A stretch of DNA of 64,000 nt from a bacterium (lineage in GTDB: Bacteria > Patescibacteriota > Minisyncoccia > Phycocordibacterales > UBA918): the NCBI GenBank assembly GCA_043719295.1, contig JAYSUD010000005.1, positions 31,651 to 95,650 on the forward strand, in the 5' to 3' direction. Position 1 is the stretch's first letter. Each line of letters begins with the position of its first letter. The notes under the pieces were generated by a model. That model did no database searches, was not told the DNA's origin, and saw nothing but the letters and a program-made list of their open reading frames with translations. A program made the position numbers and the translations under genes. Shown here one piece after another: positions 4,000 to 47,816 of this stretch.

Positions 4000-4070
4000 G
4001 TCAAAATATCTCATGTTATAATGAGGAAAATAAGTATTTAACAAAAAGAGTCGATTTATAAATTTTATAT

Positions 4071-5042
4071 ATGACTAAAGATAGCTACATAAAAATTGGT
4101 CTAGTCCTGATAATTTTGATTGGTGTTCTATTTATCTACTTTTCTAAAGATAAAATTGAACACCTTGAACCACCACTATTGAAAGCAAGTTCTGTTTACG
4201 TAGGTAAAGAAGTCACTCTTTCTGGTGTTGCGTACCCAAATTCTCGAATAGCTGTTTATGTAAATGATTCTTTTGTTGATGAGTTTCAAGTATCTGATAA
4301 GGGACAATTTGAAAATAAGATTCAGTTAAGTACCGAAGGTGAAGTAAAAATAAAAGCTAAACAGCTATTCAAAAATTTAACAAGCGATTTTAGCGATTTA
4401 CTTTCTGTTCAAGTTGATTTAACTCCTCCTGATAAAAATTCACTTAAACTTACATCTGGTATTGCCGAAAAAACTCAGGAACAATTCCTCGAAATTAAGG
4501 GAAGCGTAAACCCTGGTGAGATACTTCAAGTTGGGACGAGTAATATCAACGTCAATCCCGATGGTTCATTTGAAGATAAAATTAAATTAGTTGAAGGATT
4601 AAATACGCTCGAATTTATTATTAAAGATAAAGTAGGAAATTCAGTGGTATCAAAAAATCAACAAATTTATGTAGATTCAATAGCTCCAAAAATTGTTACA
4701 AGTAGTTTTGAGTGTAGGTATAAAGATACTGACACGCTATCAACGCAAGAGAAAGTGTGTATAGAAATAGGTGATTGGTCAGGTTACTTAGACTCTTACA
4801 ACTCGTTACCAATCGTAGGTTCTGTAACAGGACAGATTAAATCTATTAGTGTGAATGAAAAAAGTGTGGAGTGGGATGAAAATAACGAGATATACCAAAG
4901 ACTTAATTTATATCTAAGCGGTGGTATTAATAAGTATAAAGTCATAGTCGAGGATATTTCAGGAAATGTATCTTCAGCATATATTGAAACAAGTGCTGAG
5001 CGGACTCAAGACACTATAAATCTAAACATTGATGATTATTAG
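4071..5042 (+). CDS. membrane-anchored protein with Ig-like beta repeats
   Basis: N-terminal TM helix followed by repeated beta-rich ~90-aa segments. Confidence 0.45.
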   Translation: MTKDSYIKIGLVLIILIGVLFIYFSKDKIEHLEPPLLKASSVYVGKEVTLSGVAYPNSRIAVYVNDSFVDEFQVSDKGQFENKIQLSTEGEVKIKAKQLFKNLTSDFSDLLSVQVDLTPPDKNSLKLTSGIAEKTQEQFLEIKGSVNPGEILQVGTSNINVNPDGSFEDKIKLVEGLNTLEFIIKDKVGNSVVSKNQQIYVDSIAPKIVTSSFECRYKDTDTLSTQEKVCIEIGDWSGYLDSYNSLPIVGSVTGQIKSISVNEKSVEWDENNEIYQRLNLYLSGGINKYKVIVEDISGNVSSAYIETSAERTQDTINLNIDDY

Positions 5043-5847: not shown

Positions 5848-7113
5848 ATGGAAAAACTAGCTTGGACTACAGAAAAACGAAGTGTAATTGAACTCATACC
5901 ATACGAGAAAAACCCTCGAAAAATTAGTGAATACCAACTCAATAATCTAAAGAGGAGTTTTGAGAAATTTAATTTGGTAGAAATACCAGCTGTAGATTTA
6001 GATGGGAAAATAATCGCTGGGCACCAACGCTTAAAGGTAATGAAGTTACTTGGTCGTGAGAACGAAATTATTGACGTACGTGTTCCTAATCGTATATTGA
6101 CTGATGAAGAATACGAACAGTATTTACTCACCTCAAATGCAGTTACTGGTGAGTGGGATTTTGAACTACTGAAAGAATTTGAATTTGAGTTGTTGCAAGA
6201 TATAGGTTTTGACCAAAAAGTACTCGATGACATATGGGACACAACAGAAATAACTGAAAAAGAAAAAGTTACTGATGGTGGTGATATTAGTGTAGAAATA
6301 CAGACCAAGGTTGGTGACCTTATACAGCTCGGCAACCATAGACTGATATGTGGTGACTGTACTAACCTTGGTGTACTAAAAATACTTTGTGGCGATGAGC
6401 GATTGGATATGATTGCTAGTGACCCACCATATAATATTGACCTAGATTATAACGCTGGCATTGGTGGGAATCAGTCGTACGGTGGCAATGTAATTGATAA
6501 ACGAACCGATGAAGAGTATATAGATTTCCTACGCTCTAGTATGAAAGCGGCATTGTCAGTTGCAAAGCCAGATACACATGTTTTCTATTGGAATACTGAA
6601 CAGCACATCTGGATTTTACAGACACTATACCGAGAGCTTGGTATTGAAAACAAGAGGGTTTGTCTATGGATTAAAAATGGACACAATCCAACACCAGGTG
6701 TTGCTTTTAACAAATGCTATGAACCGTGTGTATATGGTACTAGGGGTAAGCCATTCCTGTCAGAGCATAATGAATATACTGAGATATTAAATACTGATAT
6801 AGAGAATGGAAATAAAGGCTTTAGCACCATAAATGTATGGCTTGAAAAACGTCTACCCTCAGCTGAGTATGAACACGCCACTGCCAAACCTGCTTCACTG
6901 CACGAAAGAGCAATTAAACGCTGTACACGAGCAAATGACATCATACTAGATTCATTTGGTGGATCTGGTAGCACACTCATTGCCGCTGAACAACTACATC
7001 GAAGAGCATTTCTGGTAGAGCTTGAACCTAGATTTTGTGACCTTATTTGCCAAAACTTTGAATCACTCACAGGCAAGAAACGTAAGTTAATCGGTAATTA
7101 TGCGAAAGTCTAA
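5848..7113 (+). CDS. ParB-like nuclease domain fused to an N6-adenine/N4-cytosine DNA methyltransferase (phage-type orphan MTase)
   Basis: N-terminal ParB/Srx-like region; DPPY motif (IASDPPYNIDLD); C-terminal FGGSGST AdoMet motif (beta-class order). Confidence 0.75.
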   Translation: MEKLAWTTEKRSVIELIPYEKNPRKISEYQLNNLKRSFEKFNLVEIPAVDLDGKIIAGHQRLKVMKLLGRENEIIDVRVPNRILTDEEYEQYLLTSNAVTGEWDFELLKEFEFELLQDIGFDQKVLDDIWDTTEITEKEKVTDGGDISVEIQTKVGDLIQLGNHRLICGDCTNLGVLKILCGDERLDMIASDPPYNIDLDYNAGIGGNQSYGGNVIDKRTDEEYIDFLRSSMKAALSVAKPDTHVFYWNTEQHIWILQTLYRELGIENKRVCLWIKNGHNPTPGVAFNKCYEPCVYGTRGKPFLSEHNEYTEILNTDIENGNKGFSTINVWLEKRLPSAEYEHATAKPASLHERAIKRCTRANDIILDSFGGSGSTLIAAEQLHRRAFLVELEPRFCDLICQNFESLTGKKRKLIGNYAKV

Positions 7114-8114: not shown

Positions 8115-8453
8115 AATTAATGCTTGATAGGACTTAATAATTCGTGGCGGATATACAAAAAGCCCGCCACGGGTAGAGGGCGAACCCTCTCGTACCAGTT
8201 TCCCGATACGGCCTATCAAGCAACCCCATGACGGGTTTTTTATGCTTGATAGGACTTTTCACCATGCTCCAGATATTCTCTGAAGTTTAGGCTACTTCTA
8301 AATATTCGATTCTACGAGAACAATAATAGCAGATTTTACTGCCTATTTCACTCTATCGCATGTTTGTTCTTTTGCTAAGGCTCAAACACGAGTATGTGAT
8401 GAATATGAAGTTCTGCATAGACTATGCATCATAAATGGTTCTGTCATTAATTA

Positions 8454-9776
8454 ATGATGGAAACGAACGCAATTGGGCGTATACCCAGCAATATCTCAAT
8501 CACCGAGACCCGTATCAGATATTGCCTATATGCTCGAAAATCGACTGAATCAGACGAACAGCAAGCATTATCTATAGATTCTCAAGTAAAGGAAATGGGT
8601 GCTATTGCAGAGCGTTTAAACCTCAATGTTGTCAGTATTAAAAGAGAGTCTCATTCAGCAAAGGAATCGGGACAACGTCCTGTTTTCAAAGAACTACTTG
8701 AAGAAGTCAGAAAAGGAACGTATGACGGTATTCTCACATGGGCGGCAGACCGACTGAGTAGAAATGCTGGGGATCTAGGTTCGCTCGTAGATTTAATGGA
8801 TCAGAAGCGGCTTATCCATATTCAGACCTATGGACAGACCTTTTCTAATTCGCCAAACGAAAAGTTTCTCTTGATGATTCTGTGTTCACAAGCAAAACTT
8901 GAGAACGACAACAAAAGTCAAAACGTGAAGCGAGGGTTACGGGCGAGAGTAGAAATGGGTTTATGGCCGTGTAGACCGCCAACTGGGTACAGTAAGTATA
9001 AACGAATGGATCAAAAGTGTGAGTCAGTTATAGATATCGAACGTGCACCGATCATTAAACAAATGTTTGAGAAAGTTGGTAACGACGGCTGGAGTGGAAG
9101 AAAGCTCTATCATTGGCTAAAAGACGATATTAATTTCAAAACTGAGAATAATATGCACTTAAGTCTTGGTAACTTATATCGAATACTTTCAAACCATTTC
9201 TACTATGGGAGGTTTGAATTCCCAAAACAATCTGGACTTTGGTACAACGGAGCGCATGAACCTCTTATTTCCAAAGAGCTTTTTGATTTAGTTCAGTCCC
9301 GTATTAAAAGTCAGATACTTGAGCCACGTTCTGCTCATAAAGAATTTGCGTTTACAAAAATCATGTCCTGTGGACTGTGTGGTTCTGGTATTACCGCAGA
9401 CGAAAAATTTAAGCATCAAATGAACGGTAATACTCACCGTTATGTCTACTATAAATGTACCCGTACCAAAGACAGTAACTGCTCATGTGGTTTTATCAAT
9501 GAAGATGATCTAATTATTCAACTTCAAGACCTAATGAATGACCTTGATATACAAATAGTTCCGATGAGAGAGCAGATCGCTAACGATTTGAGGAAATTCA
9601 AGAAGTTTGAACAAATGATACTCGGTACTAAAACACCAGTAGTAGTGAAAGATATTGATATTCGTAATTACGCCAAATTTATTCTTCAAGAGGGTGATAT
9701 TGAAGAAAAACGTGTTTTTCTAGGGTGCTTAAAAAATAAAATAATCTTAGAAAATAAAAGAATATGTCTAGCATAG
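8454..9776 (+). mobile_element. large serine recombinase (integrase)
   Basis: N-terminal resolvase catalytic domain (YARKSTESDEQ...DSQ...RLSRN), recombinase domain and C-terminal Cys-rich zinc ribbon (CGLCGS...YYKC). Confidence 0.8.
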
Positions 9777-9814: not shown

Positions 9815-11695
9815 TCATATGTCGAGTACATGAATATCATTCGAAGGGAAGAAACCTTTTGTTTCAATTGCAGATCGCATCATTTCAGTATCTTCTGTAA
9901 ATATTACGACAGCCAAATCTTGGACGGCGCGCGAACAGCAAACATAGAATAATCTACGAGTCCTGTCCACCACAGAATCTCTGCCATTTTGAATATTATC
10001 AATATCCGTTTCAGAAAGCGGGACCATATCGAAATATTTACCATAGGAAAAAGATGTCGTCGTACTTTCTTCATCATCGACTACTACCAAAACTCTATCA
10101 AACTCCGCCCCCTTAATCCCTTGTTGTGTTGCAAAGGGTGATTGTTCTTCAATATAAGTCCTATAGCTAAGCACTTGATTTGCACTACAGTTAAGAAATC
10201 TAAGCACTGAGTTTTCAGGGGCGTTTTCGGTAAACGATTCCCTAGAAATAAATTGTGAAAGTGGTTCAAAAAAACGTTCATCTAAAGCTAGAAGATTGTT
10301 CTTTTGAACAAAGTTAATCACATCACCAATTAGGATTTGACTTCTATCTGCAAACATTTCTCCTAGAGCAGTAAGGTCATCATTTAATGAAGCTAACTCA
10401 GTTGCAAGATTATTTGAAAAAATATAATCAGGATCAAGCCGAGGACAACTATTTCTCAGTATAGACATTACCTTGAAATCATCATTATCCGTTCTAGCTT
10501 GTAATAGCGGAATTATATACTGAATGAATGGTCTAACGACCCAAGCTGTCCCATCAATAAGTCCGCTCTTTAAGCTTTCTGGAGATTTGTCATTCAATGC
10601 ACTATAGATGTCAGGGAAACCAAGTCTGGAAGCTGCGATTCTGTGAACTACTACGAGCATTCTGACATCTCCTTCCTTTGTGTCACTCAACCAGAGTGGG
10701 TCATTATTCTGTTGAGCTAACCATGCTCTAACGCTCGTCAATCCCTCGGTTCGTTTATCTGAAGGTAAAATGAACGCTCTTGCCGTGCCTTGGATGGATG
10801 TTTGTACGCCATCAATCTCAATGGTTTTACCGCGAATTTGATGCAATCCATCACCCTCAGCTCTGATATTATTTATAACATTAAGCACATTGACTGGACA
10901 TCTAAAGTTTTCTGGTTTTTGAATTGTTAGCCACCCAACCTCTTCTGGTATCTCACCAATTCCATCCATATAAATCTTTTGCATTGGATCTCCAAAAAAA
11001 CCTAAGCAAAACCCAGTAGACGCACTTGAGGTTATTTTTTTTAAGGCTTTGATAAAATCAGGTATAGTGTCCTGACTTTCATCTACAAAGATGACAGGGA
11101 AGCGTTGCGCTATAACTTTTTGCAAAATGCCATGACTTGATATCAAGTCGGTGCCAATTTTCAGTATGTCACTATGCCCCAAGATTCCGTTTGCATAATC
11201 ACTGCCAGTACCATACCTAAAGCTTTTAACTATTTTAACAAGTTCAACTTGTTCTCTGTACCTCTCAATATTTAAACGCTCCTTTAATTTTGTGGCTTCG
11301 TGTGTCCTTGGTTTGATAATTTTTTCTTCAGATTCCAATATTTTTTCATCTATCCTTTGAAGAACCCAAGTCCTCAAGTCATCCTGAAACGGTCTAATAA
11401 CAATCCATAAGAAACTGTGAATTGTTGATACGTGAAAAAGTGTATCATGACTTACGTCACCATAAATTTCTTTCACAGCAACATCTGTATATGTGATACA
11501 AGCTATTTGCTGTGCTTGTCTACGCAGATGATCACCTCTCATTTCTGATAAATAATTTAAAGCCTTAACCAACGATGTTGTTTTACCAGAACCTGCCCCA
11601 GCTGTCATGAGAAAATGACACAACCCATCGTCATTTAAACGGGAGTGAAGTTCTATATCGGCAGGAGTGTCGGGGTTATCAATACGGCTTGTCAT
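9815..11695 (-). CDS. UvrD/Rep-like superfamily-1 helicase (GajB-like)
   Basis: Walker A TAGAGSGKTTSL, DE/Q motifs; start overlaps the stop of the upstream OLD-family gene (operon). Confidence 0.7.
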   Translation of the reverse strand: MTSRIDNPDTPADIELHSRLNDDGLCHFLMTAGAGSGKTTSLVKALNYLSEMRGDHLRRQAQQIACITYTDVAVKEIYGDVSHDTLFHVSTIHSFLWIVIRPFQDDLRTWVLQRIDEKILESEEKIIKPRTHEATKLKERLNIERYREQVELVKIVKSFRYGTGSDYANGILGHSDILKIGTDLISSHGILQKVIAQRFPVIFVDESQDTIPDFIKALKKITSSASTGFCLGFFGDPMQKIYMDGIGEIPEEVGWLTIQKPENFRCPVNVLNVINNIRAEGDGLHQIRGKTIEIDGVQTSIQGTARAFILPSDKRTEGLTSVRAWLAQQNNDPLWLSDTKEGDVRMLVVVHRIAASRLGFPDIYSALNDKSPESLKSGLIDGTAWVVRPFIQYIIPLLQARTDNDDFKVMSILRNSCPRLDPDYIFSNNLATELASLNDDLTALGEMFADRSQILIGDVINFVQKNNLLALDERFFEPLSQFISRESFTENAPENSVLRFLNCSANQVLSYRTYIEEQSPFATQQGIKGAEFDRVLVVVDDEESTTTSFSYGKYFDMVPLSETDIDNIQNGRDSVVDRTRRLFYVCCSRAVQDLAVVIFTEDTEMMRSAIETKGFFPSNDIHVLDI

Positions 11696-11699
11696 GTCG

Positions 11700-13961
11700 C
11701 TAAGTTACTTGCACACTTATAATAGTCTCACTCAGTACTTCAGTATCTCCGGTGCCTGAGGAGTTCTCTGTGGTAGGGGTAATTTGCATTTCCAACCACT
11801 TCAAACCTTCTGAAATATAATCTGGAACAATCCAGGCATCCTTATCTTTTGTTAGAAGTGCTAAAGCGAAATCGGTTTTTTTGAAGTTCTTGCCGCTGAT
11901 TCGTTTATATAAGCGATCCGTTATAACTTCGAGTGTTGGTGAATCGCTAGACTTTACTCTTAACTTAAGTTCTTTATTAGCCATTTCTTGACTCCAAGAT
12001 AAATTTTGATATGCAAAGGCTTCTTCTAGTGTGCGTCCAGTGCGTTCAATATTCTTAGTATCACGAATGATATTTATTTGCGTTTGATAACATACACGTA
12101 CTGGAGCACATCCTGTGTCACGAACTTGCTCTTTTTCTTCAGAAGTTGACTGCATAAGGTCAATGATATTTCTTTTTTTAGGCAACCACTGAATTAAAGT
12201 CTGATTTGAAGTGACAGCATTTTTTGTTTCGACAGAGCAGCTGCTACCTCTTTTTTTCTCACCCTCCTCGACCTCGTCAATATCTTCAAATTCATCTAAG
12301 TCAGTGTCTTCGTCTGTTACATTTTGTTCTACATCAGGGTCAGATCCAATGACACTATCAAGGTCAGTGATAACAAGAGTCGTTATCCCTAAAAAATCTA
12401 TGAGTGACTGAAAACGGAAACTAAAAGCTCCGCCAATTTCTAATACACTTAAATAAGTTTGTTTAAGAAGCGGTGCACTTTTCTCGATCATCAGTGGCGT
12501 TAATAATCTCTCAACATTTCCCTCAACCAGGACTGCTGCATCAGCAAAGAAGAGATCGCAGTGAGTTAACTTTAGATATCTTTCCAAAAAATCTCGCGTT
12601 GTCTCTGGTGTCTTCGTATAGTATTCAGACAGATTAAGTACAGAAGTATACTGAGAGGCTCCGCTATCTTCTCGCCGGAAATATCTAATAGGTTGAAAAC
12701 CTCTCTCGTAAAGAATGTGAGATGAATGGGTAGTTATAACTATTTGACTAGAATAAGCATCTGAGTCAGGCCCGTTAATGGACAATATGTCCAATATTTT
12801 GTTTACAAAAACCTGTTGCAACTGGTTATGTAAGTGTGCCTCTGGTTCCTCGATAAAAACAAGGTGTAAAGGCGGTCGTTTCACTTCAATATCCATCCAC
12901 TGGTTATGTAAGTCCAGTAATTCCACAACCATATAAATTAAGTTTTTAAAACCTAAGCCATTGTATTTGTCTGGAAGCGTCACGTCGTCACCTAAAGCGT
13001 AATGGACTTGTGTGCCGTCCTGAACATTCATTAATGTTGCTGGATTAAGATCTGAAAGTATCTTGATACTTGGGTTTTTCAACCCAGGATATCCTAGCTT
13101 AGAGAGCTTTTTCATTGTCGACGAGAACACATCTTGTAAATGAACGTTCATCAATCTCTCAGATTCAAAAAGAGCTTTCATGGCCTCATAATCATGACCT
13201 CGTTTCTCTAGATTGCGCTTATAAAATCTACTTAAGTGTCGAGAAAGCTCTTCTGATCTATTGCCGCTAGAAGTGTCTGATAGATGACGTTGTGCTTGCA
13301 GAAAGTCAATTTTGATGAGGGAAGAGAGGATATCTCTACCTGATCTGTTTTTACCAGCAGAGCCTTTGTCTGAAGTGATCTCTAATGGTTCATAAGTACC
13401 AATTTCGGATAGACTTATATCAAACTTTGATCTGTCGAGGACATAATACCTAAATTCGTATTCCCGCTTTAGCTCTTTAGTAAGGAAATCTTTTAGTGTC
13501 TTTGGAAACAAAACTACGGAATCTTCTTCAGCAGTTTGTTGTCCATTTTGAGCTATAGATTGTGCTTCTCTGAACCTAGATAGAGTTAACTGTGAGTCCG
13601 TCGGTGAGAAAGATACTCTTATCCCAACCTGATTTTCTCTCCAAGCAAGACTTGGTAACAAATCAATTACTCGATGTAAGTCAGAATCAGTAACACCAAA
13701 CCAGAAATCTATTGAGATTTCGGGAAGTTCAGAGTCAGCAATACCATTGGCAAAGGCCTCAATATTCGCCCAAGTAGATGCATTAAAATCATGTAGACTA
13801 AGTTTTTCACGAGATGCAGAAGCAAAGAGTTGCAAAGCCTGAACCACAGATGTCTTACCGCTATTGTTTGACCCGACGAAGATAGATATATCTTTTTCCA
13901 AATCTATAACGACGTCTTTTAGGCGTCTGAAGTTCTTTATGTGTAAGGAGTCTAATTTCAT
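11700..13961 (-). CDS. OLD-family ATP-dependent endonuclease, AAA_15/21 ATPase + Toprim (GajA-like)
   Basis: N-terminal MKLDSLHIKNFRRLKD...GSNNSGKTS; Walker B/D-loop LHLVFIEEPEAHLH; Toprim LVEGNVE and ITDLDS motifs. Confidence 0.75.
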   Translation of the reverse strand: MKLDSLHIKNFRRLKDVVIDLEKDISIFVGSNNSGKTSVVQALQLFASASREKLSLHDFNASTWANIEAFANGIADSELPEISIDFWFGVTDSDLHRVIDLLPSLAWRENQVGIRVSFSPTDSQLTLSRFREAQSIAQNGQQTAEEDSVVLFPKTLKDFLTKELKREYEFRYYVLDRSKFDISLSEIGTYEPLEITSDKGSAGKNRSGRDILSSLIKIDFLQAQRHLSDTSSGNRSEELSRHLSRFYKRNLEKRGHDYEAMKALFESERLMNVHLQDVFSSTMKKLSKLGYPGLKNPSIKILSDLNPATLMNVQDGTQVHYALGDDVTLPDKYNGLGFKNLIYMVVELLDLHNQWMDIEVKRPPLHLVFIEEPEAHLHNQLQQVFVNKILDILSINGPDSDAYSSQIVITTHSSHILYERGFQPIRYFRREDSGASQYTSVLNLSEYYTKTPETTRDFLERYLKLTHCDLFFADAAVLVEGNVERLLTPLMIEKSAPLLKQTYLSVLEIGGAFSFRFQSLIDFLGITTLVITDLDSVIGSDPDVEQNVTDEDTDLDEFEDIDEVEEGEKKRGSSCSVETKNAVTSNQTLIQWLPKKRNIIDLMQSTSEEKEQVRDTGCAPVRVCYQTQINIIRDTKNIERTGRTLEEAFAYQNLSWSQEMANKELKLRVKSSDSPTLEVITDRLYKRISGKNFKKTDFALALLTKDKDAWIVPDYISEGLKWLEMQITPTTENSSGTGDTEVLSETIISVQVT

Positions 13962-14069: not shown

Positions 14070-14143
14070 TGGTGATCCCACGGAGAATCGAACTCCGATT
14101 TCCAGGATGAAAACCTGATGTCCTAACCGTTAGACGATGGGAC
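14070..14143 (-). tRNA. tRNA-Glu (UUC), CCA encoded
   Basis: cloverleaf GGTCCCA...anticodon loop TTTTCAT...TGGGATCACCA read on the minus strand. Confidence 0.85.
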
Positions 14144-14256
14144 CAAACGTTATGTATAACGCGAGCAAAATCATACCAAAAAACACAGAAAAAGCTAGTC
14201 TTGTACACAAAAGGGCAATCTCGGAAGATTGCCCCCTATCACCGTTTTACTTGCTC

Positions 14257-14706
14257 TCACCGCTGATGCAAAGGAATTACCTGATGATGCCCTGAAGTGT
14301 AATCCTTTTGAAATAAATCATTTCTCTTTGCCGCTAACTCCACCTGGTCTAGCAACAAATTATTACTGATAATCGATGCCCCGAGCATCAGATCTTCAAA
14401 CGTGAGCCCAAGCAATTCTGCAAGACACTCAACTGCGCTCCTCTTGATGTTATTTGTGACATACGAACGTGACTCACCGAGCGAATAGTAAATGTTTGAG
14501 CGCTCTTTATTGCACGGCCGCTGGATCAAATCAACACCAAGTTTAAACTTTTCTAAAAGCGCTTTAACCGCTAGATAGGCAAGATCTTTTTCTTCTTGGG
14601 TTAAAAGAGGTGATGTTGTCTTTTTCCCTTCAGGAACAGACTTTGGCTCATCTACCAAAGGTGCACCAAACGCAGGCGCGAGCGATATACGTACTTTCCT
14701 AGCCAT
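14257..14706 (-). CDS. hypothetical protein, possible HTH
   Basis: 149-aa ORF; segment SAVECLAELLGLTFEDL is HTH-like; overlaps the upstream 79-aa ORF by 8 bp. Confidence 0.4.
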   Translation of the reverse strand: MARKVRISLAPAFGAPLVDEPKSVPEGKKTTSPLLTQEEKDLAYLAVKALLEKFKLGVDLIQRPCNKERSNIYYSLGESRSYVTNNIKRSAVECLAELLGLTFEDLMLGASIISNNLLLDQVELAAKRNDLFQKDYTSGHHQVIPLHQR

Positions 14707-14938
14707 GTACTTTCCTTTTCATTTTTGGAGCACCTACATTTTTTCGAGCTTCTGTTCGCATAAGGCGTAAGTCTTCCTGAGGGAAGTTATGCACTCTTTC
14801 AAGTGAATGAACTATATCCCAAAGACGTTGATATTCATCAGAATCTTCAGGGGCAAGATACAATTCCCCCCAGCACTTAATATAGAACTCTTTTGCTTTC
14901 TCTGGAGAAAGCACGTGGATATCAATTACGACATACAT
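14699..14938 (-). CDS. hypothetical small protein
   Basis: 79-aa ORF translationally coupled to the downstream 149-aa ORF. Confidence 0.35.
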   Translation of the reverse strand: MYVVIDIHVLSPEKAKEFYIKCWGELYLAPEDSDEYQRLWDIVHSLERVHNFPQEDLRLMRTEARKNVGAPKMKRKVHG

Positions 14939-17384: not shown

Positions 17385-17440
17385 AGCTAAAGGCCGGCGG
17401 GAGTTTCAAAAATGAAACGTATCCCCCGCCGGCCTTTGTG
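17385..17440. terminator. bidirectional GC-rich hairpin terminator
   Basis: aaaggccggcggg...cccgccggccttt with flanking A/T runs between convergent genes. Confidence 0.6.
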
Positions 17441-17453
17441 GTAGTGTTGATTG

Positions 17454-18446
17454 TTATTTAATGGCAGCAATCAGTTCTGCCAGGGTCATGTCCTTCAAAA
17501 GTTCCCATTGCGACATCTCTTGAAGTTTCCTAATCATTCTCGCAACATCCGGATCTTGTTGGTGAATCAACTGATACACCAGAAGGTCAAAATATCGAGG
17601 AGGCAAATCGTTAAGTGTCCGCGAAGCAAGGCGCAGAGAAACGAGTTCCTGCAACTCCCCCTTACTATCAATCTGCGTCAAGAGAAATTTCGCCACCTGT
17701 TCCACGTCTGCTTCGGCTGGTGCTTCGGCTGGTGCTTCGGCTGGGAGGCTAGTCAATTTTGGTACATTGTCAACTTGTTCATAACCGAGCAATTCCGGAA
17801 CAGAAATGCCAAGGTTCCTCGCCCACCTTTCCCCACGCTCTTGATTGAGATATGTTTTTTCAGCTTTGAAGTTATTGAGCGTTGACATACCTTCTGGCAA
17901 CACTGCAGCAAGTTCAGAGAGCGTCATACCCCGCTTTGTCCTGATGTAATCGAGTTTTTCATACACACGAGTTCTGATGGCTTTTAATGGCCAAACGCTG
18001 CGTTGGCGAAGTTCGTATGTTTCACCGTAGAGAGTCACTGTATCAAATGTCCAAATAACACTTGGTTCAGCTCGAGGTTCCGAGACAACATGTGTAGCTT
18101 CCGTCGCCAAATCAGTGACAATAGAAGGTGAGGAAACCTGAAAATCATAACGGAATTCCTGAATCGCTGTAGCATGCTTTTCTCCCTTATCCAAAAGCCC
18201 TTTGACCTCATCAAGCTCCAGGAAAAAAGAAATCTCTGACAAAGCTGGAGACTTCCTCCCATCGTAAAATAAATCGAGGGATCCTTTTGTCCAGTTAATT
18301 CTTTTTTGTAAGACCAATTCTTGAAAACTGTAGTTTTCAATAAGATCTCCAAGTTGCATCCCCAACATATCACTATGTCCGATGAATGCCTCTTCAAATG
18401 AAAGTGACATGGTGTTCTCCTGTTCTAGCTCACAAGTGGTTTGCAA
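17454..18446 (-). CDS. hypothetical protein with central XRE-like HTH and an (AEAP)n acidic repeat
   Basis: MTLSELAAVLPEGMSTLNNF...ERWARNLGISVPEL HTH; PAEAPAEAPAEA from a 12-bp x3 DNA repeat; locally elevated GC. Confidence 0.5.
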   Translation of the reverse strand: MQTTCELEQENTMSLSFEEAFIGHSDMLGMQLGDLIENYSFQELVLQKRINWTKGSLDLFYDGRKSPALSEISFFLELDEVKGLLDKGEKHATAIQEFRYDFQVSSPSIVTDLATEATHVVSEPRAEPSVIWTFDTVTLYGETYELRQRSVWPLKAIRTRVYEKLDYIRTKRGMTLSELAAVLPEGMSTLNNFKAEKTYLNQERGERWARNLGISVPELLGYEQVDNVPKLTSLPAEAPAEAPAEADVEQVAKFLLTQIDSKGELQELVSLRLASRTLNDLPPRYFDLLVYQLIHQQDPDVARMIRKLQEMSQWELLKDMTLAELIAAIK

Positions 18447-19359
18447 ACCATTCCTTGCAAGGGGTTTCTGTTGAACGAGCTAACACATAGCTAGCTGGTA
18501 TTACTTCATACAGTTTTAACAGACGCTCATACGAACGTGGGATTGGTGGATCGTCAATAGTCGCCAGTCGTTCTTTAACCTTTTGCATAAGCAGCAAATG
18601 TACTGGAATTGGAACACCAACTACACCAGAAGAAATCTTCTCAATAAGCTTATCAGTGAGTTTATATTCAGATCTGAACCATCGATCTATTGAACGGTAG
18701 TTAGAAAGAAGACTCCCCCACATATAGCTCGCTCGTCTGTCTCCTGATACAAAAGGTCCACTCGGCGACTGCCAAGAATTTCCATTTGATACAGGAGTTA
18801 GTTCCCGATTAAAATTACGAGAACCAAGTAAGACTGCTTGTGGTAGACCTATCCTCTCAGCTAATCTCGAAACAATTTCATGAGAGAGTCTGGTGATCGT
18901 ACTTTCTCCTGACAACACCTTGCGTTGATTAGTTTGCAAAAACACACCAGACGCATAACATATAGTCAGAATCCTTAATCCATGTTCTTGAACTAAGTAG
19001 TCAGAAACAACTGGTACAGCAGAGCTGATACCTTTTTTCTGTCTTAGTTTAGTACCTCGCCACGTTCCATCAACAATTGACTTCAAAAGCAGATACTCAG
19101 ACGCACCATCTCTGACACGCTTGGGATATGCTGCATAAAAATCTAACAGCAATTGAGCAATTGCTTCAACTGCTACCGGCTTATTACCTGCAGCAATTTC
19201 AGTCAAAGCAGAATCACTAAACCCACGGTTTTTACGCCATATCGGTTTATCCACCACTGTTTCAAGCAAAGCAGCAAAGATGCTGCCTGCATATGCATCA
19301 CCACTCACAAGGAGCGGGTGCACAAAGAGCATACTAGGTTGCTCGAGCATTGATCTCAC
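18430..19359 (-). CDS. hypothetical protein (no recognisable domain), operonic with 17454-18446
   Basis: 309-aa ORF overlapping the downstream gene by 17 bp; elevated GC. Confidence 0.5.
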   Translation of the reverse strand: MRSMLEQPSMLFVHPLLVSGDAYAGSIFAALLETVVDKPIWRKNRGFSDSALTEIAAGNKPVAVEAIAQLLLDFYAAYPKRVRDGASEYLLLKSIVDGTWRGTKLRQKKGISSAVPVVSDYLVQEHGLRILTICYASGVFLQTNQRKVLSGESTITRLSHEIVSRLAERIGLPQAVLLGSRNFNRELTPVSNGNSWQSPSGPFVSGDRRASYMWGSLLSNYRSIDRWFRSEYKLTDKLIEKISSGVVGVPIPVHLLLMQKVKERLATIDDPPIPRSYERLLKLYEVIPASYVLARSTETPCKEWFANHL

Positions 19360-19493
19360 TCCTTGATTACATAGGTTTGATCATATTGTTAAAGAACTGC
19401 TTTTGTTCAAGAACAATAGGATTACTAGTGAGATACAATACACGAATCAAGTCCGTTTTGCACGCTGGTTGACAGCTGAAAAGTAAATTATTT

Positions 19494-19805
19494 TTAGATA
19501 GATTTTGGAGCATGCTCCATAAACTGTTCTGGTGACACATCCTCTGCTGAAGTAACAAGATCAATATCTGATCCAAGTACTTCTACAAATCTTTTAGCTT
19601 CGCTACTTTTTCGAGAAATAAAAACCTCAAGTGGTGCTCCGTAACCAATAAATTCATTACTCTCTGCTACCATTGCTAATGCATCATTAAAACGCTTTGA
19701 GCTTTGGTTCTTAAGTAATACAATCCTATCTCGTACTTTCGTAAGATGGACTTCATTTCTCCATTCTAATGGACTCTGTGGACCTTTATCGAATGATTCT
19801 GTCAT
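19494..19805 (-). CDS. hypothetical protein
   Basis: 103-aa ORF upstream of the unknown cassette. Confidence 0.4.
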   Translation of the reverse strand: MTESFDKGPQSPLEWRNEVHLTKVRDRIVLLKNQSSKRFNDALAMVAESNEFIGYGAPLEVFISRKSSEAKRFVEVLGSDIDLVTSAEDVSPEQFMEHAPKSI

Positions 19806-19857
19806 ATCCGTCTAGTATACCAAAAAAGTGACTCTTTCTAGAGTCACTTTTTTGGTA

Positions 19858-21657
19858 TTACTCCTGCAAGAATCCTCCCGCCTGATGCTCCCAAAGTCGT
19901 TGATAGGTACCACCTGCTTCAGCCAGAGTTTTATGACTTCCATCTTCAACAATTTTTCCTCCTTCGAGAACCAAGATTCTATCCATTTCTCGAAGTGTTG
20001 AAAGTCGGTGTGCAATAGCAACAACAGTCTTCCCTTCCATAAGTTCATGCAGTGCCTTCTGAATTGCAACTTCACTTTCACTATCAAGTGCTGAAGTAGC
20101 TTCGTCAAGAATAAGTATTGGTGCGTCTTTAAGCATGGCTCTCGCTATTGCTACTCGTTGCTTTTGTCCACCCGAGAGCTTTACTCCACGTTCACCAACA
20201 AGCGTGTCGTACTTATCTTCAAGTGCACTAATAAACTCATGCGCCTGAGCTTTTTTTGCAACAGCTTCAATCTCTTCATTTATTGCATCCGGTTTCCCAT
20301 ACGCAATATTTTCACGAATTGACCGATGAAACAGCATTGGTTCTTGCGGCACGATAGCTATGGCCTCGCGCAACGAGTCTTGTGTTACTTTTGCAATGTT
20401 TTGTCCATCAATGGAAATGTCCCCTGCTTGCAAATCATGCTGTCTTAGCATTAAAGATACAAAAGTAGTTTTACCTGCTCCTGAAGGTCCAACTAACCCA
20501 ACTCGTTCTCCGGATTTTATAGTCAGATTAAAGTCATCAAATACTTTGTTTTTACCGTATTCAAACAATACGTTATTCCAAGTAATTCCAGCATTATTTA
20601 CTTTCAAATTTTTAGCCTTTACAGCATCATTAATTTCATATGGAAGCAAAACAGCTTCAAGACCTTCTTCTACCTCACCGAATTGTCGAGCAAACCCATT
20701 CATAAGCATTCCCATGATATTGAATGTAAAAGAAACACGAGAAAGAAGTATTAATACCAAAACTAAACTACCTGCTGTAGCTTGTCCCGAAGCAAGCAAA
20801 GAAAACACAATAATGAGCATGCAAAGAATAGTTGCATTACCAAGTAATCCATTACCAACCATAGTCCACTCGCCCATATACCACTGTTTAAAATCTTTTG
20901 CAGTTTTTTCATCAATAGCATCTTTTAAGCGGAGTAATTCTTGATCTTTTCTTGAATATTGTCTCACTGCAGAAATGTTTGTCAGCACATCTACTCCCTC
21001 TCCCCGCAATTTTGATGAAGACGCGGAATACGCCACAACAAACGGCCGCCTTTTTTTAACTCTCCAAACGTTGTACACAATTACAGCTCCGACAATTGCA
21101 ATTGTGGCAACCCCTACAGACCAATGCAATTTAAAAAATAAGTACAAAGTTGCTACTAGTCCTATTATTTCTGGCCACAATCTCCACATAAATTGATCAA
21201 GAATACGTGAGCTACCATCACTTGCATTTGATATCTTATTTGAAAGCGAACCGGCAAATCTATCAACAAAGTACCCATGGCTATGCTCTAATACATACCG
21301 ATATAATTCTTTGTATGCAGTTGCATTCTCCTTAATCATCCAAGCAATACCGGAAAAGCCACTAACTCGCCAGCATGCAGTACGTAAGACTAACAATACA
21401 AAAAATACAGAGCCCCAGTAATACAGCACACTTAATTGCGTCTCTAGATTTTCTGCAATACTAAAATTATCTATAAGTCGAGAAATTGCGTATACTTCAA
21501 GGACTTCGAGGATGGCAGCAAGTGTTACTGAAACCATAGCAATAGTTGCTAATAAACGATGTGGCGAAGTGACATACCACAAAAATGCCAAAGGTGTCTT
21601 AGGAATTGCGCCGCTGTACGTTCCACTTTTTGTAAGTTTTTGGGTTGTTTTTATCAT
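19858..21657 (-). CDS. ABC exporter, fused permease/ATPase (MsbA-like)
   Basis: 6-TM N-terminal domain, Walker A GPSGAGKTT, signature LSGGQKQRVAIARAML. Confidence 0.85.
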   Translation of the reverse strand: MIKTTQKLTKSGTYSGAIPKTPLAFLWYVTSPHRLLATIAMVSVTLAAILEVLEVYAISRLIDNFSIAENLETQLSVLYYWGSVFFVLLVLRTACWRVSGFSGIAWMIKENATAYKELYRYVLEHSHGYFVDRFAGSLSNKISNASDGSSRILDQFMWRLWPEIIGLVATLYLFFKLHWSVGVATIAIVGAVIVYNVWRVKKRRPFVVAYSASSSKLRGEGVDVLTNISAVRQYSRKDQELLRLKDAIDEKTAKDFKQWYMGEWTMVGNGLLGNATILCMLIIVFSLLASGQATAGSLVLVLILLSRVSFTFNIMGMLMNGFARQFGEVEEGLEAVLLPYEINDAVKAKNLKVNNAGITWNNVLFEYGKNKVFDDFNLTIKSGERVGLVGPSGAGKTTFVSLMLRQHDLQAGDISIDGQNIAKVTQDSLREAIAIVPQEPMLFHRSIRENIAYGKPDAINEEIEAVAKKAQAHEFISALEDKYDTLVGERGVKLSGGQKQRVAIARAMLKDAPILILDEATSALDSESEVAIQKALHELMEGKTVVAIAHRLSTLREMDRILVLEGGKIVEDGSHKTLAEAGGTYQRLWEHQAGGFLQE

Positions 21658-45271: not shown

Positions 45272-46372
45272 CTAAAATATCCATTTTTGCAACTTCCATC
45301 CATTCCCATGTGAAAGTAAACCGAGATACGATTGGACCACAGCATCTTTGTATTCTGATTCTTTGAGCTTTCGTTCCATCCGGTTCCTGCTTGTTGTACG
45401 AAGCACTCTATGGTGCGGAAAATGTACCCACCCAAGAAAATCAACTCCTGAGGCGTGGGTAGAAATGGAAACTTTGTGTGGATGCAACTCAAGTCTTAAT
45501 GTAACCTCCAGAAATAGTACGATATATCGTACTATTTCTGCAAGGTATTTTTTATCCTGTGAGAGAAAAACAAAGTCATCGGCATAACGGATGTACTGTT
45601 TTACACTTAGTGTATGTTTTACAAACTGGTCAAATTCGTTCATGTATATATTTACGAGTAATTGTGACGTGAGATTGCCTAAAGGTAACCCTTTAGACGT
45701 TGAGCAAGGACTAACTTTGTTCACGACATCTTCATCAGTATTTGTTTTAAAGCTTTTAATTACATCTCCAAGAAGGGATAGGATATCAGTGTCAACGATA
45801 TGTCGTTTTAAAATCTCCATCAAAATTTCCTGATCAATACTTGCGAAAAACTTTCTGATGTCACATTTCAATACCCAACAAGTTTTAGTATAGTTCTTTG
45901 ACACTTTGTGTGCAAAGTTTCTAAACTGATTAATTGCTTTATGGGTTCCCTTTCCATTTCTGCACGAGTAAGAATCGTGAATAAATGTTGTGTCAAAATA
46001 TGGATACAGTTTACGGTAGAGTGCATGGTGAAGTAGTCGGTCACGTACACTTGCTTTATGAATATCACGTGGTTTTGGGTCGTTGATTTTAAATGCTTCG
46101 TATCCACCATGGCCGTACGTCTTTGCTTTTAAGTCGTTGTGAAGCGAAAGAATATTGCTCATCAGATTATATTGAAACTCTTGTACATCAGCTTTCTTTC
46201 GTTTACCTCGTACAAACTCCCTCCATGCAAGAAGTAAATTTTCTACAGAAATGATATCCTCATAGGTATGAGTGAAAAGAGTTTTGACAGTAAAGTCACC
46301 CCCCCCCGACGCAATCTCCTTCCCATTTTGGAGCGTATCAAAGAGTCCTATTTGTTTTGGCATAATTGCCAT
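45272..46372 (-). CDS. diversity-generating retroelement reverse transcriptase
   Basis: RT motifs 0-7 including YADD (YIRYADDFVFL) and the DGR-specific [L/I]GxxxSQ motif (LPLGNLTSQLLVNIYMNEF) in place of QGxxxSP; 366 aa without a maturase domain. Confidence 0.8.
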   Translation of the reverse strand: MAIMPKQIGLFDTLQNGKEIASGGGDFTVKTLFTHTYEDIISVENLLLAWREFVRGKRKKADVQEFQYNLMSNILSLHNDLKAKTYGHGGYEAFKINDPKPRDIHKASVRDRLLHHALYRKLYPYFDTTFIHDSYSCRNGKGTHKAINQFRNFAHKVSKNYTKTCWVLKCDIRKFFASIDQEILMEILKRHIVDTDILSLLGDVIKSFKTNTDEDVVNKVSPCSTSKGLPLGNLTSQLLVNIYMNEFDQFVKHTLSVKQYIRYADDFVFLSQDKKYLAEIVRYIVLFLEVTLRLELHPHKVSISTHASGVDFLGWVHFPHHRVLRTTSRNRMERKLKESEYKDAVVQSYLGLLSHGNGWKLQKWIF

Positions 46373-46666
46373 TCTACCTTACCGAAGACACACAGACATA
46401 CCCTTGGGAACAGAATTGATACTTTATATATTGAACTTATCGAAGCCGTCTCTGCTGCAGCCTTTCTTTCTAAGACAGAAAAACTTCCGTTCTTGCGTCT
46501 TGCGATACGCAAGCGTGACACGCTGACATTGTTACTTGTGATTCTTTTTGAAACAAAGTCGCTTGATATGAAGAAATTCATAAGCATATCAACTCAACTT
46601 GAAGACATTGGCAAGATGTTAGGAGGATGGATTGGGCAAGTAGAAAAACAAACACTTCCCCATTAG
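46268..46666 (+). CDS. avd: Avd-like DGR accessory protein (four-helix bundle), opposite strand to the RT
   Basis: ERIKESYLFW...LPKTHRHTLGNRI...EDIGKMLGGWIGQV parallels Bordetella-phage Avd (ERYERVISYLYP...IPRKHG...EVGRILGSWIARV); overlaps the RT N-terminus by about 100 bp, antisense. Confidence 0.6.
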   Translation: MSEKSFDSKVTPPRRNLLPILERIKESYLFWHNCHSTLPKTHRHTLGNRIDTLYIELIEAVSAAAFLSKTEKLPFLRLAIRKRDTLTLLLVILFETKSLDMKKFISISTQLEDIGKMLGGWIGQVEKQTLPH

Positions 46667-46692
46667 TGAAGAAGTGTTTGAAATGAAGCAAG

Positions 46693-46821
46693 TTGCCAGA
46701 AGCGGTGAGACGTTGTTCGCATTGCGATCATTGTCCAGCCAGTTGTAGTTCCAGGTCCATGAGCCGTCGTCGTTCCGATATAGATACAGGAAGTAGGAAT
46801 TGCCATCAGGGTTCCGCAGAA
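46693..46821 (-). repeat. DGR template repeat (TR), 129 bp
   Basis: aligns over 129 bp with VR 47150-47278; 19 mismatches, 18 of them TR-adenine (coding strand) to any base; N/AAC-rich reading frame; the track ORF 46619-46867 is this non-coding TR. Confidence 0.85.
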
Positions 46822-47126
46822 ATGTGTGCAGTGCCATCCATGCCACCACCCATAGTTTGCAGAACAAATTTAGTGTTGAATTTTATGCGGTATTAAAATA
46901 CCAAGGTATCGCACACCAAGTAACTTCATTTTTTGAAGTGTCTTCATACACCATACTATTCCAAACCGTAATCAGAAATATTCAAAATGTATGGATACTG
47001 GATTCGGTTGCAAGAAACCTTAATCGCTCGCATATGCACCTAATACCACTTTAGAGTATATCGTATAAAAAGTTTGACCGCCTCAATTTCTTGAAGCGGT
47101 CAGGGCAAAGTGCCCAAGGGCTAGAG

Positions 47127-47816
47127 CTAAATTGCAGAAGTCAAAGGACTTGCCAGAAGCGGTGAGACGCTGCGCGCACCGCGACCATAGTCCAGCCAGT
47201 AGTAGTCCCAGGCCCACGAGCCGTCGTCGTCCCGACATAGATACAGGAAGCCGGAATAGCCACCAGGGCGCCGCAGAACACTTCCTGCGAATTCCATCCA
47301 TGAAATCCTGTAAGTGTCATACAGGAAACGAAGTGTCGCCTGCCCTTTCTCTTCATGGAGCGCCTGGCCGGTCTTGGCGTCAGGGCGGATCAATCCGCCT
47401 TGCGTCAGACGTGCCAGTTTTTCGACGCCGGTGATAGTCGATTCGCCATCTCTCAGCCCGCTTTCGAAGCGAACGTTCGAGAAGTCGATTTCGGTCAAGA
47501 AGAGCGCACGCTCGTCCTGCTCACCCATTGTCCATCCCGACCCGATAAACTTCTCCGGGTCAAACGGCTTGGTGCGGTCGATCATCAGGGCGCTCGGTCC
47601 TTTGATTTGGAGCCGACAATCGTTCTTGAGGAAGGCGGTCATACGCTTACCGAGTTCGGCAGGCGACAAGTCGACCACTCCACTTTGAAGCACGTCAGGG
47701 TCAAACTGGCCCCAGTCGATGTTCGCTCCAAGTCGAAGTGACAACGCAACTGCCAGGTCACGAGAAACTGCTTTCGTCATGATAGTGTCCTCCACGCGCT
47801 GTGCCATATTCCGCAA
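47127..47816 (-). CDS. DGR target (variable) protein; VR at 47150-47278 encodes the C-terminal about 43 residues
   Basis: C-terminus ...GGYSGFLYLCRDDDGSWAWDYYWLDYGRGARSVSPLLAS corresponds to TR NPDGNSYFLYLYRNDDGSWTWNYNWLDNDRNANNVSPLLA; VR ends 21 nt before the stop, followed by GC hairpin GGGCAaagTGCCC (47104-47117) and terminator 47076-47103; GC-rich relative to neighbours. Confidence 0.8.
   Translation of the reverse strand: MRNMAQRVEDTIMTKAVSRDLAVALSLRLGANIDWGQFDPDVLQSGVVDLSPAELGKRMTAFLKNDCRLQIKGPSALMIDRTKPFDPEKFIGSGWTMGEQDERALFLTEIDFSNVRFESGLRDGESTITGVEKLARLTQGGLIRPDAKTGQALHEEKGQATLRFLYDTYRISWMEFAGSVLRRPGGYSGFLYLCRDDDGSWAWDYYWLDYGRGARSVSPLLASPLTSAI

Follow-up and report, generated by a model that had tools for sequence, protein, structure and literature searches.

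A putatively self-repressing pair of multi-domain helix-turn-helix proteins at a fixed, fast-evolving chromosomal locus in a member of the Patescibacteriota

Introduction

The locus described here raises a simple question: is a small, hairpin-bounded block of unfamiliar genes in a bacterial chromosome a foreign cassette, or is it a resident part of the genome with a role of its own? The block lies at positions 17454-19805 of a 64,000-nucleotide stretch of DNA from a bacterium of the Patescibacteriota (Minisyncoccia; Phycocordibacterales; UBA918). We refer to the whole of this stretch as the window (GenBank assembly GCA_043719295.1, contig JAYSUD010000005.1, positions 31,651 to 95,650 of the forward strand). 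As a guess, its retroelement and its gene content, which is like that of small genomes, would fit Patescibacteria/CPR. According to the ORF listing, the block consists of three minus-strand open reading frames (ORFs) at 17454-18446 (330 aa), 18430-19359 (309 aa) and 19494-19805 (103 aa), which we call orfB, orfA and orfC, respectively. An earlier, sequence-only reading of the window had placed these three ORFs between hairpins, with coordinates that were borne out, and had taken them for a horizontally acquired module, possibly regulatory or defensive.

The explanation that we favor, and consider moderately probable, is that the block is a lineage-restricted, chromosome-anchored operon of paired multi-domain helix-turn-helix (HTH) proteins that represses itself through a palindrome. 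Such an operon would consist of an optional orfC, then orfA, then orfB, and would be closed at both ends by hairpin terminators. orfB would supply a Cro/C1 HTH, orfA would supply a duplicated domain, here called the A-domain, together with a middle module, and the two proteins would form one DNA-binding complex. This complex would repress its own operon by binding to the sequence ATTGTTCTTGAAC-N7-GTTCTTTAACAAT over the -35 and -10 elements of the orfA promoter, and it may act on further targets as well. The locus itself would change by linker expansion and by domain shuffling or fusion, with whole alleles being replaced at times between related lineages.

Results and Discussion

Judged by its profile matches, orfB carries a genuine Cro/C1 HTH. 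Residues ~142-210 display the five-helix, lambda-repressor-like fold with its helix-turn-helix and match the Pfam family HTH_3 (PF01381) with an E-value of 5e-4. Likewise, orfB matches PHROG_8, annotated as 'transcriptional regulator', with an E-value of 1.3e-5, and PHROG_8 and PHROG_3 are its best PHROG families. When a 9-sequence profile of the orfB module (A6) was compared with the Protein Data Bank (PDB), HipB was the best match (E-value of 0.002), followed by MBF1/EDF1 (E-values of 0.06-0.13), CylR2 and the controller proteins of restriction-modification systems. Within orfB, conservation is highest in the HTH recognition region, NF[RK]AE.TYLNQER. These Cro/C1 signals are consistent with one another, though they stay under the curated threshold, and they uphold the central XRE-type HTH that the sequence-only reading had assigned to the 330-aa ORF. 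Compared with the small Cro/C1 repressors (C.AhdI/C.BclI, DdrO, ClgR, SinR and the N-domains of the 434 and P22 repressors), orfB is larger, at 318 aa, and adds an N-domain, a beta-hairpin before the HTH, an acidic, proline-rich linker and a C-domain. Also unlike these repressors, it always travels with a partner, orfA, whose domain is absent from Pfam, and there are no restriction-modification, SOS or clp genes alongside.

The pairing with orfA recurs beyond the window. Related loci are labeled L and proteins of the family P in what follows. In eight lineages (the window, L005, L010, L002, L009, L011, L014 and L015), the gene directly after an A-type gene begins with the orfB N-domain. In other lineages the two partners are joined in one protein: the beta-hairpin and HTH module of the orfB type directly precedes an A-domain in P0011, P0014, P0019, P0020, P0022 and P0023 (hmmsearch independent E-values of 1e-31 to 1e-39; hhalign, 99.9%). 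In P0012, P0013 and P0016, a Lys/Pro-rich linker appears by eye to connect an A-domain with an HTH at the C-terminus; the P0013 module, the one that was tested, scored 57-65% against the orfB module in hhalign. Mainly because of these fusions, we think that orfA and orfB probably work together in one complex. The two proteins are oppositely charged, orfA being basic (+9) and orfB acidic (-14). Adjacency and fusion also lend further backing to the tight coupling of a terminator-bounded module that had been noted from the window by itself. Repressor-partner pairs such as SinR-SinI, CI-MOR of TP901-1 and Rep-Ant of Salmonella phage differ from this pair in that the partners here are large, multi-domain and part of the chromosomal core, and do not resemble SinI, MOR or Ant in sequence; a role for orfA as an antirepressor is purely conjectural.

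The modules of orfA and orfB were delimited by iterated local hidden Markov models (HMMs) and hhalign. The two halves of orfA are homologous to one another (hhalign, 95.3%, E-value of 2e-8), and one joint HMM matches both halves of every member of the family. By these comparisons, orfA consists of two tandem copies of a new helical A-domain of ~90 aa plus a middle module. The A-domain has the recurrent motifs ..HPL.v.GD..G..F.. and ..I..G..PV.., and it gives a weak Cro/C1-like fold signal, with HTH-like fold matches that include RodZ. The middle module is a real module, common to P0009, P0010 and P0025, and it is weakly related (28%, E-value of 6e-4) to the N-terminal domain of the long-form proteins. 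By eye it resembles an XRE HTH (...RLAERIGLPQAVLLG), a resemblance that hhalign did not support (4% against the orfB HTH). PDB searches with full-length profiles returned only designed-repeat noise and weak XRE matches. We found no domain for the 309-aa ORF in Pfam, NCBIfam, PHROG or PADLOC, which agrees with the earlier statement that none was recognizable in this protein.

This is a very rare family. When an orfA profile was run exhaustively with HMMER against 1.84 billion cluster representatives, it found 22 proteins, 21 of them genuine; the other, P0026 (2330 aa), is a spurious repeat protein. No Pfam domain was present in any of the ten family members checked. Word-index searches of 5.8 billion proteins gave 1-3 relatives per query, and pattern and tblastn scans of GTDB species representatives, JGI metagenome contigs and IMG/VR gave no family members. 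Likewise, tblastn gave no relatives in 50,697 phage records (with orfA and orfB) or in 72,556 plasmids (with orfA only).

Autorepression is the best-supported mechanism for this pair. It is suggested because, in eight of ten lineages, the A gene is preceded by a promoter-like site that is overlapped by a palindrome; the core of this palindrome, TGTTC[TC]T, lies 43-81 nt upstream of the gene (0.028 occurrences expected per locus; binomial probability of 1.5e-11). The two long-form loci carry TTGA(C)...GTCAA instead. In the window, transcription from the candidate orfA promoter would give a leader of ~20-25 nt carrying the Shine-Dalgarno (SD) sequence AAGGAG, and the equivalent of this promoter candidate in L005 reads TTGGAC...TATGGT. 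The Cro/C1 HTH of orfB and the conserved palindrome over a promoter-like site 5' of orfA both favor the possibly regulatory role that had been proposed for the block.

Several observations weigh against this picture of a self-repressing HTH pair. The HTH_3 score of orfB (20.5 bits) falls below the gathering score of 23 and its HTH_26 score (18.4 bits) below the cutoff of 22. The A-domain is not linked to HTH families by sequence: its 25-sequence profile (A5) found HipB(Lp) as the best PDB match with an E-value of 1.1, and hhalign gave just 1-3.5% for the A-domain against the orfB HTH module. The lineages behind the motif statistic are related and do not count as independent, but the surrounding sequence is otherwise unalignable. 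The palindrome alone is not unusual, since 14 inverted pairs occur in 2.6 kb at the same settings, and its support comes from conservation across lineages; promoter-like matches, for their part, are not enriched over shuffled sequences. Elsewhere in the window the motif is not enriched (15 found, 13 expected), and no regulon is visible there. Finally, the HTH of L010 orfB differs in sequence, yet the L010 locus keeps a TGTTCTTTGAACA palindrome, which makes it ambiguous which protein reads the motif.

Part of this evidence would also fit a scaffold with no role in transcription, in which the HTH-like domains make contacts with proteins or with RNA and the ribosome (compare RodZ-MreB and MBF1/EDF1-ribosome), the acidic orfB and basic orfA act as an adaptor, and the upstream motif is a mere promoter. 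We regard this as unlikely. Both A-domains and the N- and C-domains of orfB are without a detectable DNA-binding signature, MBF1/EDF1 is among the profile matches (at the E-values of 0.06-0.13 given above) and RodZ among the fold matches, and orfB is strongly acidic, with a net charge of -14 in the window and -68 in L010. Moreover, the long-form locus L014 adjoins mreB, and the locus is a stable feature of the core genome and not an accessory regulator. Against a scaffold, the HTH recognition region is the best-conserved part of orfB, and a dimeric HTH protein that regulates itself would use just such a palindrome over its promoter.

The self-repressing operon would be an old resident of its chromosomal site. 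In the window, the gene order is Sua5, ABC exporter, (orfC), orfA, orfB, Nudix (on the opposite strand) and GlmS. The pair lies amid these same housekeeping genes, with Sua5 and ABC upstream and Nudix and GlmS downstream, in each of the four relatives for which the flanking sequence is long enough. L010 has exactly the gene order of the window, and L005 has it from the ABC gene onward. In L013 an ABC gene precedes an A-type gene, in L002 Sua5 precedes the A and B genes, and in L012 the same neighbors are rearranged (Sua5, Nudix, a fusion of A-domain and HTH, GlmS). The only locus situated elsewhere is the long-form L014, next to mreB. At L014 (4796-6904), an ORF of 197 aa comes after the A/B pair, and then a gene of at least 703 aa, truncated at the contig end, with a Walker-A motif, GQTGTGKTN.

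Comparison of the window with L005 and L010 gave amino acid identities of 80-83% for GlmS, 63-72% for Nudix, 62% for Sua5 and 53-64% for the ABC exporter, and of 29-37% for orfA and 21-40% for orfB. Among the relatives that share this locus, GlmS identity spans 78-83%. The four-fold degenerate sites of the flanking genes are saturated between the window and its relatives. From these comparisons, the locus is ancestral at a fixed chromosomal position and fast-evolving.

The same comparisons bear on whether the block might be a decayed remnant of a mobile element, such as the CI/Cro-type immunity region of a prophage or integrative and conjugative element (ICE) stranded between housekeeping genes, which we consider very unlikely. 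A Cro/C1 HTH and mosaic recombination (see below) are typical of phage immunity regions, the best family matches are PHROG_8 and PHROG_3, and the GC content of orfB is slightly raised, more so in L010 and L005. Yet there is no integrase, att-like repeat or other phage gene inside the hairpin-bounded block, its position is identical in lineages whose synonymous divergence is saturated, phage records, plasmids and IMG/VR hold no homologs, and the raised GC content follows from the amino acid composition of linkers rich in Ala, Glu, Pro and Ser.

Within this fixed position, the alleles have a tentative mosaic history. The nucleotide-binding domain of the ABC exporter is 93.6% identical in amino acid sequence between the window and L008, and 81.8% identical both between the window and L005 and between L005 and L008. 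Likewise, a 91-nt non-coding element upstream of orfA, which includes the TGTTC[TC]T motif, is 94.5% identical between the window and L008, though the adjacent orfA genes cannot be aligned at the DNA level, and it has diverged between L005 and either of these. The orfA proteins, by contrast, are 34-37% identical between the window and L008 and between the window and L005, and 73% identical between L005 and L008. By the 3' end of the ABC gene and by the upstream element, the closest pair is the window and L008; by orfA, it is L005 and L008. At four-fold sites, L005 and L008 are 62% identical in orfA (63/101) and 44% identical in the ABC domain (46/105; Fisher p of 0.008). The leader of L008 resembles that of L005 in its proximal part and that of the window in its distal part, which would put a breakpoint close to the operator and the -10 box. 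These patterns, which come from few sequences, are plausibly explained by limited lateral transfer in which alleles were replaced between relatives while the locus stayed in place. Phage immunity regions with mosaic CI/Cro genes offer a parallel, as they too combine Cro/C1 HTH proteins and palindromes and have alleles shuffled among relatives by recombination at conserved flanks. They differ in that the present locus lies between core housekeeping genes, has no phage genes nearby and is absent from phage, viral and plasmid collections.

A stronger version of this parallel, which we think improbable, is a specificity switch like that of an immunity region. Classes of A/B alleles would each be matched to a palindrome of their own (of the TGTTCTT type in short and medium forms, TTGAC...GTCAA in long forms) and would be swapped by recombination at the flanks and the operator, and the A-domain would be a diverged branch of the lambda-repressor fold serving as partner or antirepressor. 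If this were true, the locus would encode a core-genome regulator under diversifying selection, for instance one of a strain-specific or host-interaction program.

Rapid divergence and allele swaps could also reflect diversifying selection on a toxin-antitoxin, addiction or immunity module in which orfB is an antitoxin and autorepressor like HipB or HigA and orfA or orfC is an unrecognized toxin or antirepressor. The likeness to the HipB, HigA and MqsA operons is real as far as it goes: the best PDB match of the HTH profile is HipB, the operon is tight and bicistronic, with palindromic elements at its promoter, and the allele history is mosaic. We nonetheless find this reading quite unlikely, still more so than the scaffold. 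No toxin-like domain, such as a kinase or nuclease, is present in orfA, and neither it nor orfC matches a toxin family in Pfam, NCBIfam or PADLOC; orfA is instead a duplicated helical domain with HTH-like fold matches. Both proteins are ~300 aa with long linkers, much larger than the members of compact toxin-antitoxin pairs, and the locus holds one syntenic position in the core genome of every relative seen, where such modules are scattered or mobile, and is absent from plasmids, phages and IMG/VR.

Returning to the resident operon that we favor, its composition gives no sign of foreign origin. The GC content of the block is 0.422 as compared with a mean of 0.399 (standard deviation of 0.021) for windows of the same size, which places it at the 83rd percentile. 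Gene by gene, the values are 0.444 for orfB, 0.427 for orfA and 0.369, below average, for orfC, and the flanking glmS and sua5 have 0.436 and 0.418. These values are at odds with the visibly higher GC content than the flanks that had been claimed. In codon-usage distance, orfA ranks 22nd of 46 genes, which is ordinary, and orfB 10th, which is mildly high; neither composition nor codon usage sets the block apart as an island. A single gene of the window stands out strongly in composition: the target of a diversity-generating retroelement (DGR), which has no relation to the block and a GC content of 0.567. In the relatives, the pair lies clearly above its neighbors (0.468/0.522 against 0.41-0.42 in L010; 0.463/0.514 against 0.40-0.435 in L005). 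The mild excess is a conserved property of the A and B genes that tracks their Ala/Glu/Pro/Ser-rich linkers and is no sign of recent import. The block also keeps its position in L005, L010, L012 and L013, and there is no recombinase within it. The horizontal acquisition that had been read from a compositional shift is therefore not sustained, given GC values within normal variation and the same locus in relatives with saturated synonymous sites.

The defensive role fares no better. A search against PADLOC-DB v2 gave, for orfB only, a match to capH, a generic HTH regulator, with an E-value of 0.012, and nothing for orfA or orfC; as a positive control, GajA and GajB of a Gabija system elsewhere in the window scored E-values of 1e-254 and 3.5e-227, respectively. 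That the block is a horizontally acquired anti-phage cassette, as the sequence-only reading had allowed, is now largely refuted and scarcely credible. It is a small hairpin-bounded block of unassigned proteins with a weak capH-like match, in a window that holds Gabija and a DGR elsewhere, but no PADLOC family beyond the generic HTH and no enzymatic effector domain was found, GC content and codon usage are normal, and synteny with housekeeping genes is kept. The A and B genes are missing from the phage, plasmid and viral collections, and Gabija has an island of its own, past glmS and tRNA-Glu. The block is neither a defense system nor a compositionally foreign island.

The locus is a new variant within the well-known XRE-type class, with a new repeat domain. 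As a previously undescribed and very rare family, with a new ~90-aa repeat domain, a modular grammar and a conserved cis-element, it offers a testable regulator-operator pair in a little-characterized lineage. It also carries a caution for genome scans, as a hairpin-bounded cassette of unassigned genes with a slight rise in GC content can be an old, vertically anchored and fast-evolving locus. If allele swapping holds up with more genomes, it would represent mosaicism in the style of an immunity region at a core chromosomal regulator.

Sequence features of the locus

The coordinates of the features of the locus, and of other features of the window, are collected in Table 1.

Table 1. Positions of the genes, domains and signals of the locus and of other elements in the window
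Feature	Position (nt)	Strand	Remarks
orfA	18430-19350	-	306 aa from SD-backed ATG; net charge +9
A-domain, copy 1	19051-19329	-	orfA aa 8-100
Middle module	18793-18996	-	orfA aa 119-186
A-domain, copy 2	18475-18765	-	orfA aa 196-292
orfB	17454-18410	-	318 aa from SD-backed ATG; net charge -14
orfB N-domain	18141-18410	-	aa 1-90; from profile and hhalign dissection
orfB beta-hairpin and Cro/C1 HTH	17772-18071	-	aa 114-213; HTH itself aa ~142-210
orfB acidic/Pro-rich linker, then C-terminal helical domain		-	C-terminal domain aa 233-318
12-bp x3 tandem repeat	17709-17744		perfect; TGCTTCGGCTGG on plus strand
orfC	19494-19805	-	putative 103-aa ORF; module membership positional only
Non-coding element, 91 nt	19384-19474	-
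Imperfect palindrome	19385-19417	-	candidate operator
Sigma-70-like promoter candidate	19380-19409	-	TGAACA-18-TATGAT, 9/12 match; under palindrome; predicted
Extended -10-like box	19814-19822	-	TGgTATACT; 8 nt before orfC ATG; overlaps hairpin 3' arm; candidate promoter
Upstream hairpin	19817-19858	both	19-bp perfect arms, A6/T6 tracts; dG -29.4/-29.2 kcal/mol, z -8.8/-9.3
Downstream hairpin	17389-17437	both	13-bp perfect GC-rich arms AAAGGCCGGCGGG...CCCGCCGGCCTTT, inner GTTTCA/TGAAAC stem; dG -33.4 kcal/mol, z -7.2
DNA methylase	5848-7113
LOOT RNA (RF03000)	8175-8293	-	89.6 bits; gathering score 46.4
Large serine recombinase	8454-9776
Gabija, complete	9815-13961	-	GajB 9815-11695; GajA 11700-13961
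tRNA-Glu	14070-14144
Two small overlapping ORFs 3' of glmS	14257-14938	-	79 aa and 149 aa
DGR, whole	45272-47807
DGR reverse transcriptase	45272-46372		RVT_1, E-value 7e-27
DGR template repeat	46680-46821
DGR target ORF	47127-47807		GC 0.567
DGR variable repeat	47137-47278		at 3' end of target ORF

The overlap of the two main ORFs that had been described is seen solely with the longest ORFs, which begin at GTG or TTG. An SD sequence, AAGGAG (19359-19364), stands ahead of an in-frame ATG of orfA at 19350 (start context AAGGAGtgagatcaATG), and another, AGGAGA, stands ahead of an in-frame ATG of orfB at 18410 (cAGGAGAacaccATG). These SD-backed starts give proteins of 306 and 318 aa that are encoded 19 nt apart.

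SD sites precede only 3 of 50 ORFs of the window, namely orfA, orfB and the 149-aa ORF o149, and are lacking from the other 47. A TAnnnT box, often TATACT, lies 9-20 nt before the start in 28 of the 50, as compared with a background of 21%, which suggests that leaderless or near-leaderless mRNAs are widespread in this genome. The presence of SD sites on orfA and orfB is as expected for genes with a leader or in an internal operon position. The orfC transcript, for its part, would be near-leaderless if transcribed from the candidate TGgTATACT box. As for the 91-nt element, it has no significant RNA fold (minimum free energy z of -1.85, with 7 of 200 shuffles as good) and no Rfam match at an E-value of 1 or below beyond hairpin noise, and its being a structured RNA leader or small RNA is not supported.

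orfC is coding-like in its GC content by codon position (GC1>GC2>GC3). It is a singleton, in a cluster of 1, without a homolog or family match by Pfam, clustering or PADLOC. L008 has an unrelated ORF of 95 aa in its place, and neither L005 nor L010 has orfC. We rejected orthology between orfC and the small ORFs L008_o95 and L005_o87 (permutation p of 0.6 and 0.37, respectively, in local alignment; hhalign below 2%). These two small ORFs are homologous to one another, and lie 3' of orfB in L005 (87 aa, 4030-4293) and 5' of orfA in L008 (95 aa, 1513-1800), each time with a TATACT/TATAAT-type box of its own; this is a gene moving around the module.

The perfect tandem repeat in the orfB linker encodes, on the minus strand, PAEAPAEAPAEA, and so matches the (AEAP)3 repeat reported earlier. 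It is missing from the homologs of orfB, L005 having LPAEEPEVVVSGE instead, and is therefore a recent slippage expansion in a low-complexity linker.

Both hairpins that bracket the locus are real and are equally stable on either strand, in keeping with the strong bidirectional terminators described in the sequence-only reading. By sequence and position, the upstream hairpin is the bidirectional intrinsic terminator of the ABC-exporter gene and the upstream border of the cassette, and the downstream hairpin is a terminator common to the convergent orfB and nudix genes. A simple terminator scan missed both because the T-run forms part of the stem. The downstream hairpin is unique within the window. 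Its sequence is kept in L005 (3926-3980; 83% over 59 nt) and L012 (1848-1897; 78% over 50 nt), that is, between lineages in whose neighboring genes synonymous divergence is saturated; in L010 another hairpin takes its place.

Neighboring features of the window

The two small overlapping ORFs 3' of glmS have SD-like sites by eye, TAAGGAGG and AAAGGAAAG; the SD survey took in the 149-aa ORF and left out the 79-aa ORF. They have no homologs or domains, L005 has unrelated small ORFs there, and we rejected both (o149 and o79) as paralogs of the orfA/orfB modules (hhalign below 1%).

The Gabija system marks the actual defense island of the window, an island that also holds the large serine recombinase and the DNA methylase and that ends at tRNA-Glu, 3' of glmS. 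L005 likewise has a serine recombinase slightly downstream of glmS, and the 3' side of glmS and tRNA-Glu looks like an integration hotspot. A LOOT RNA, scoring well above its gathering threshold, lies on the strand opposite to the serine recombinase gene of the island, ~160 nt upstream of it. In the DGR, 18 of the 25 differences between template repeat and variable repeat fall at adenines of the template repeat, and the target ORF is the strongest outlier of the window in codon usage and composition.

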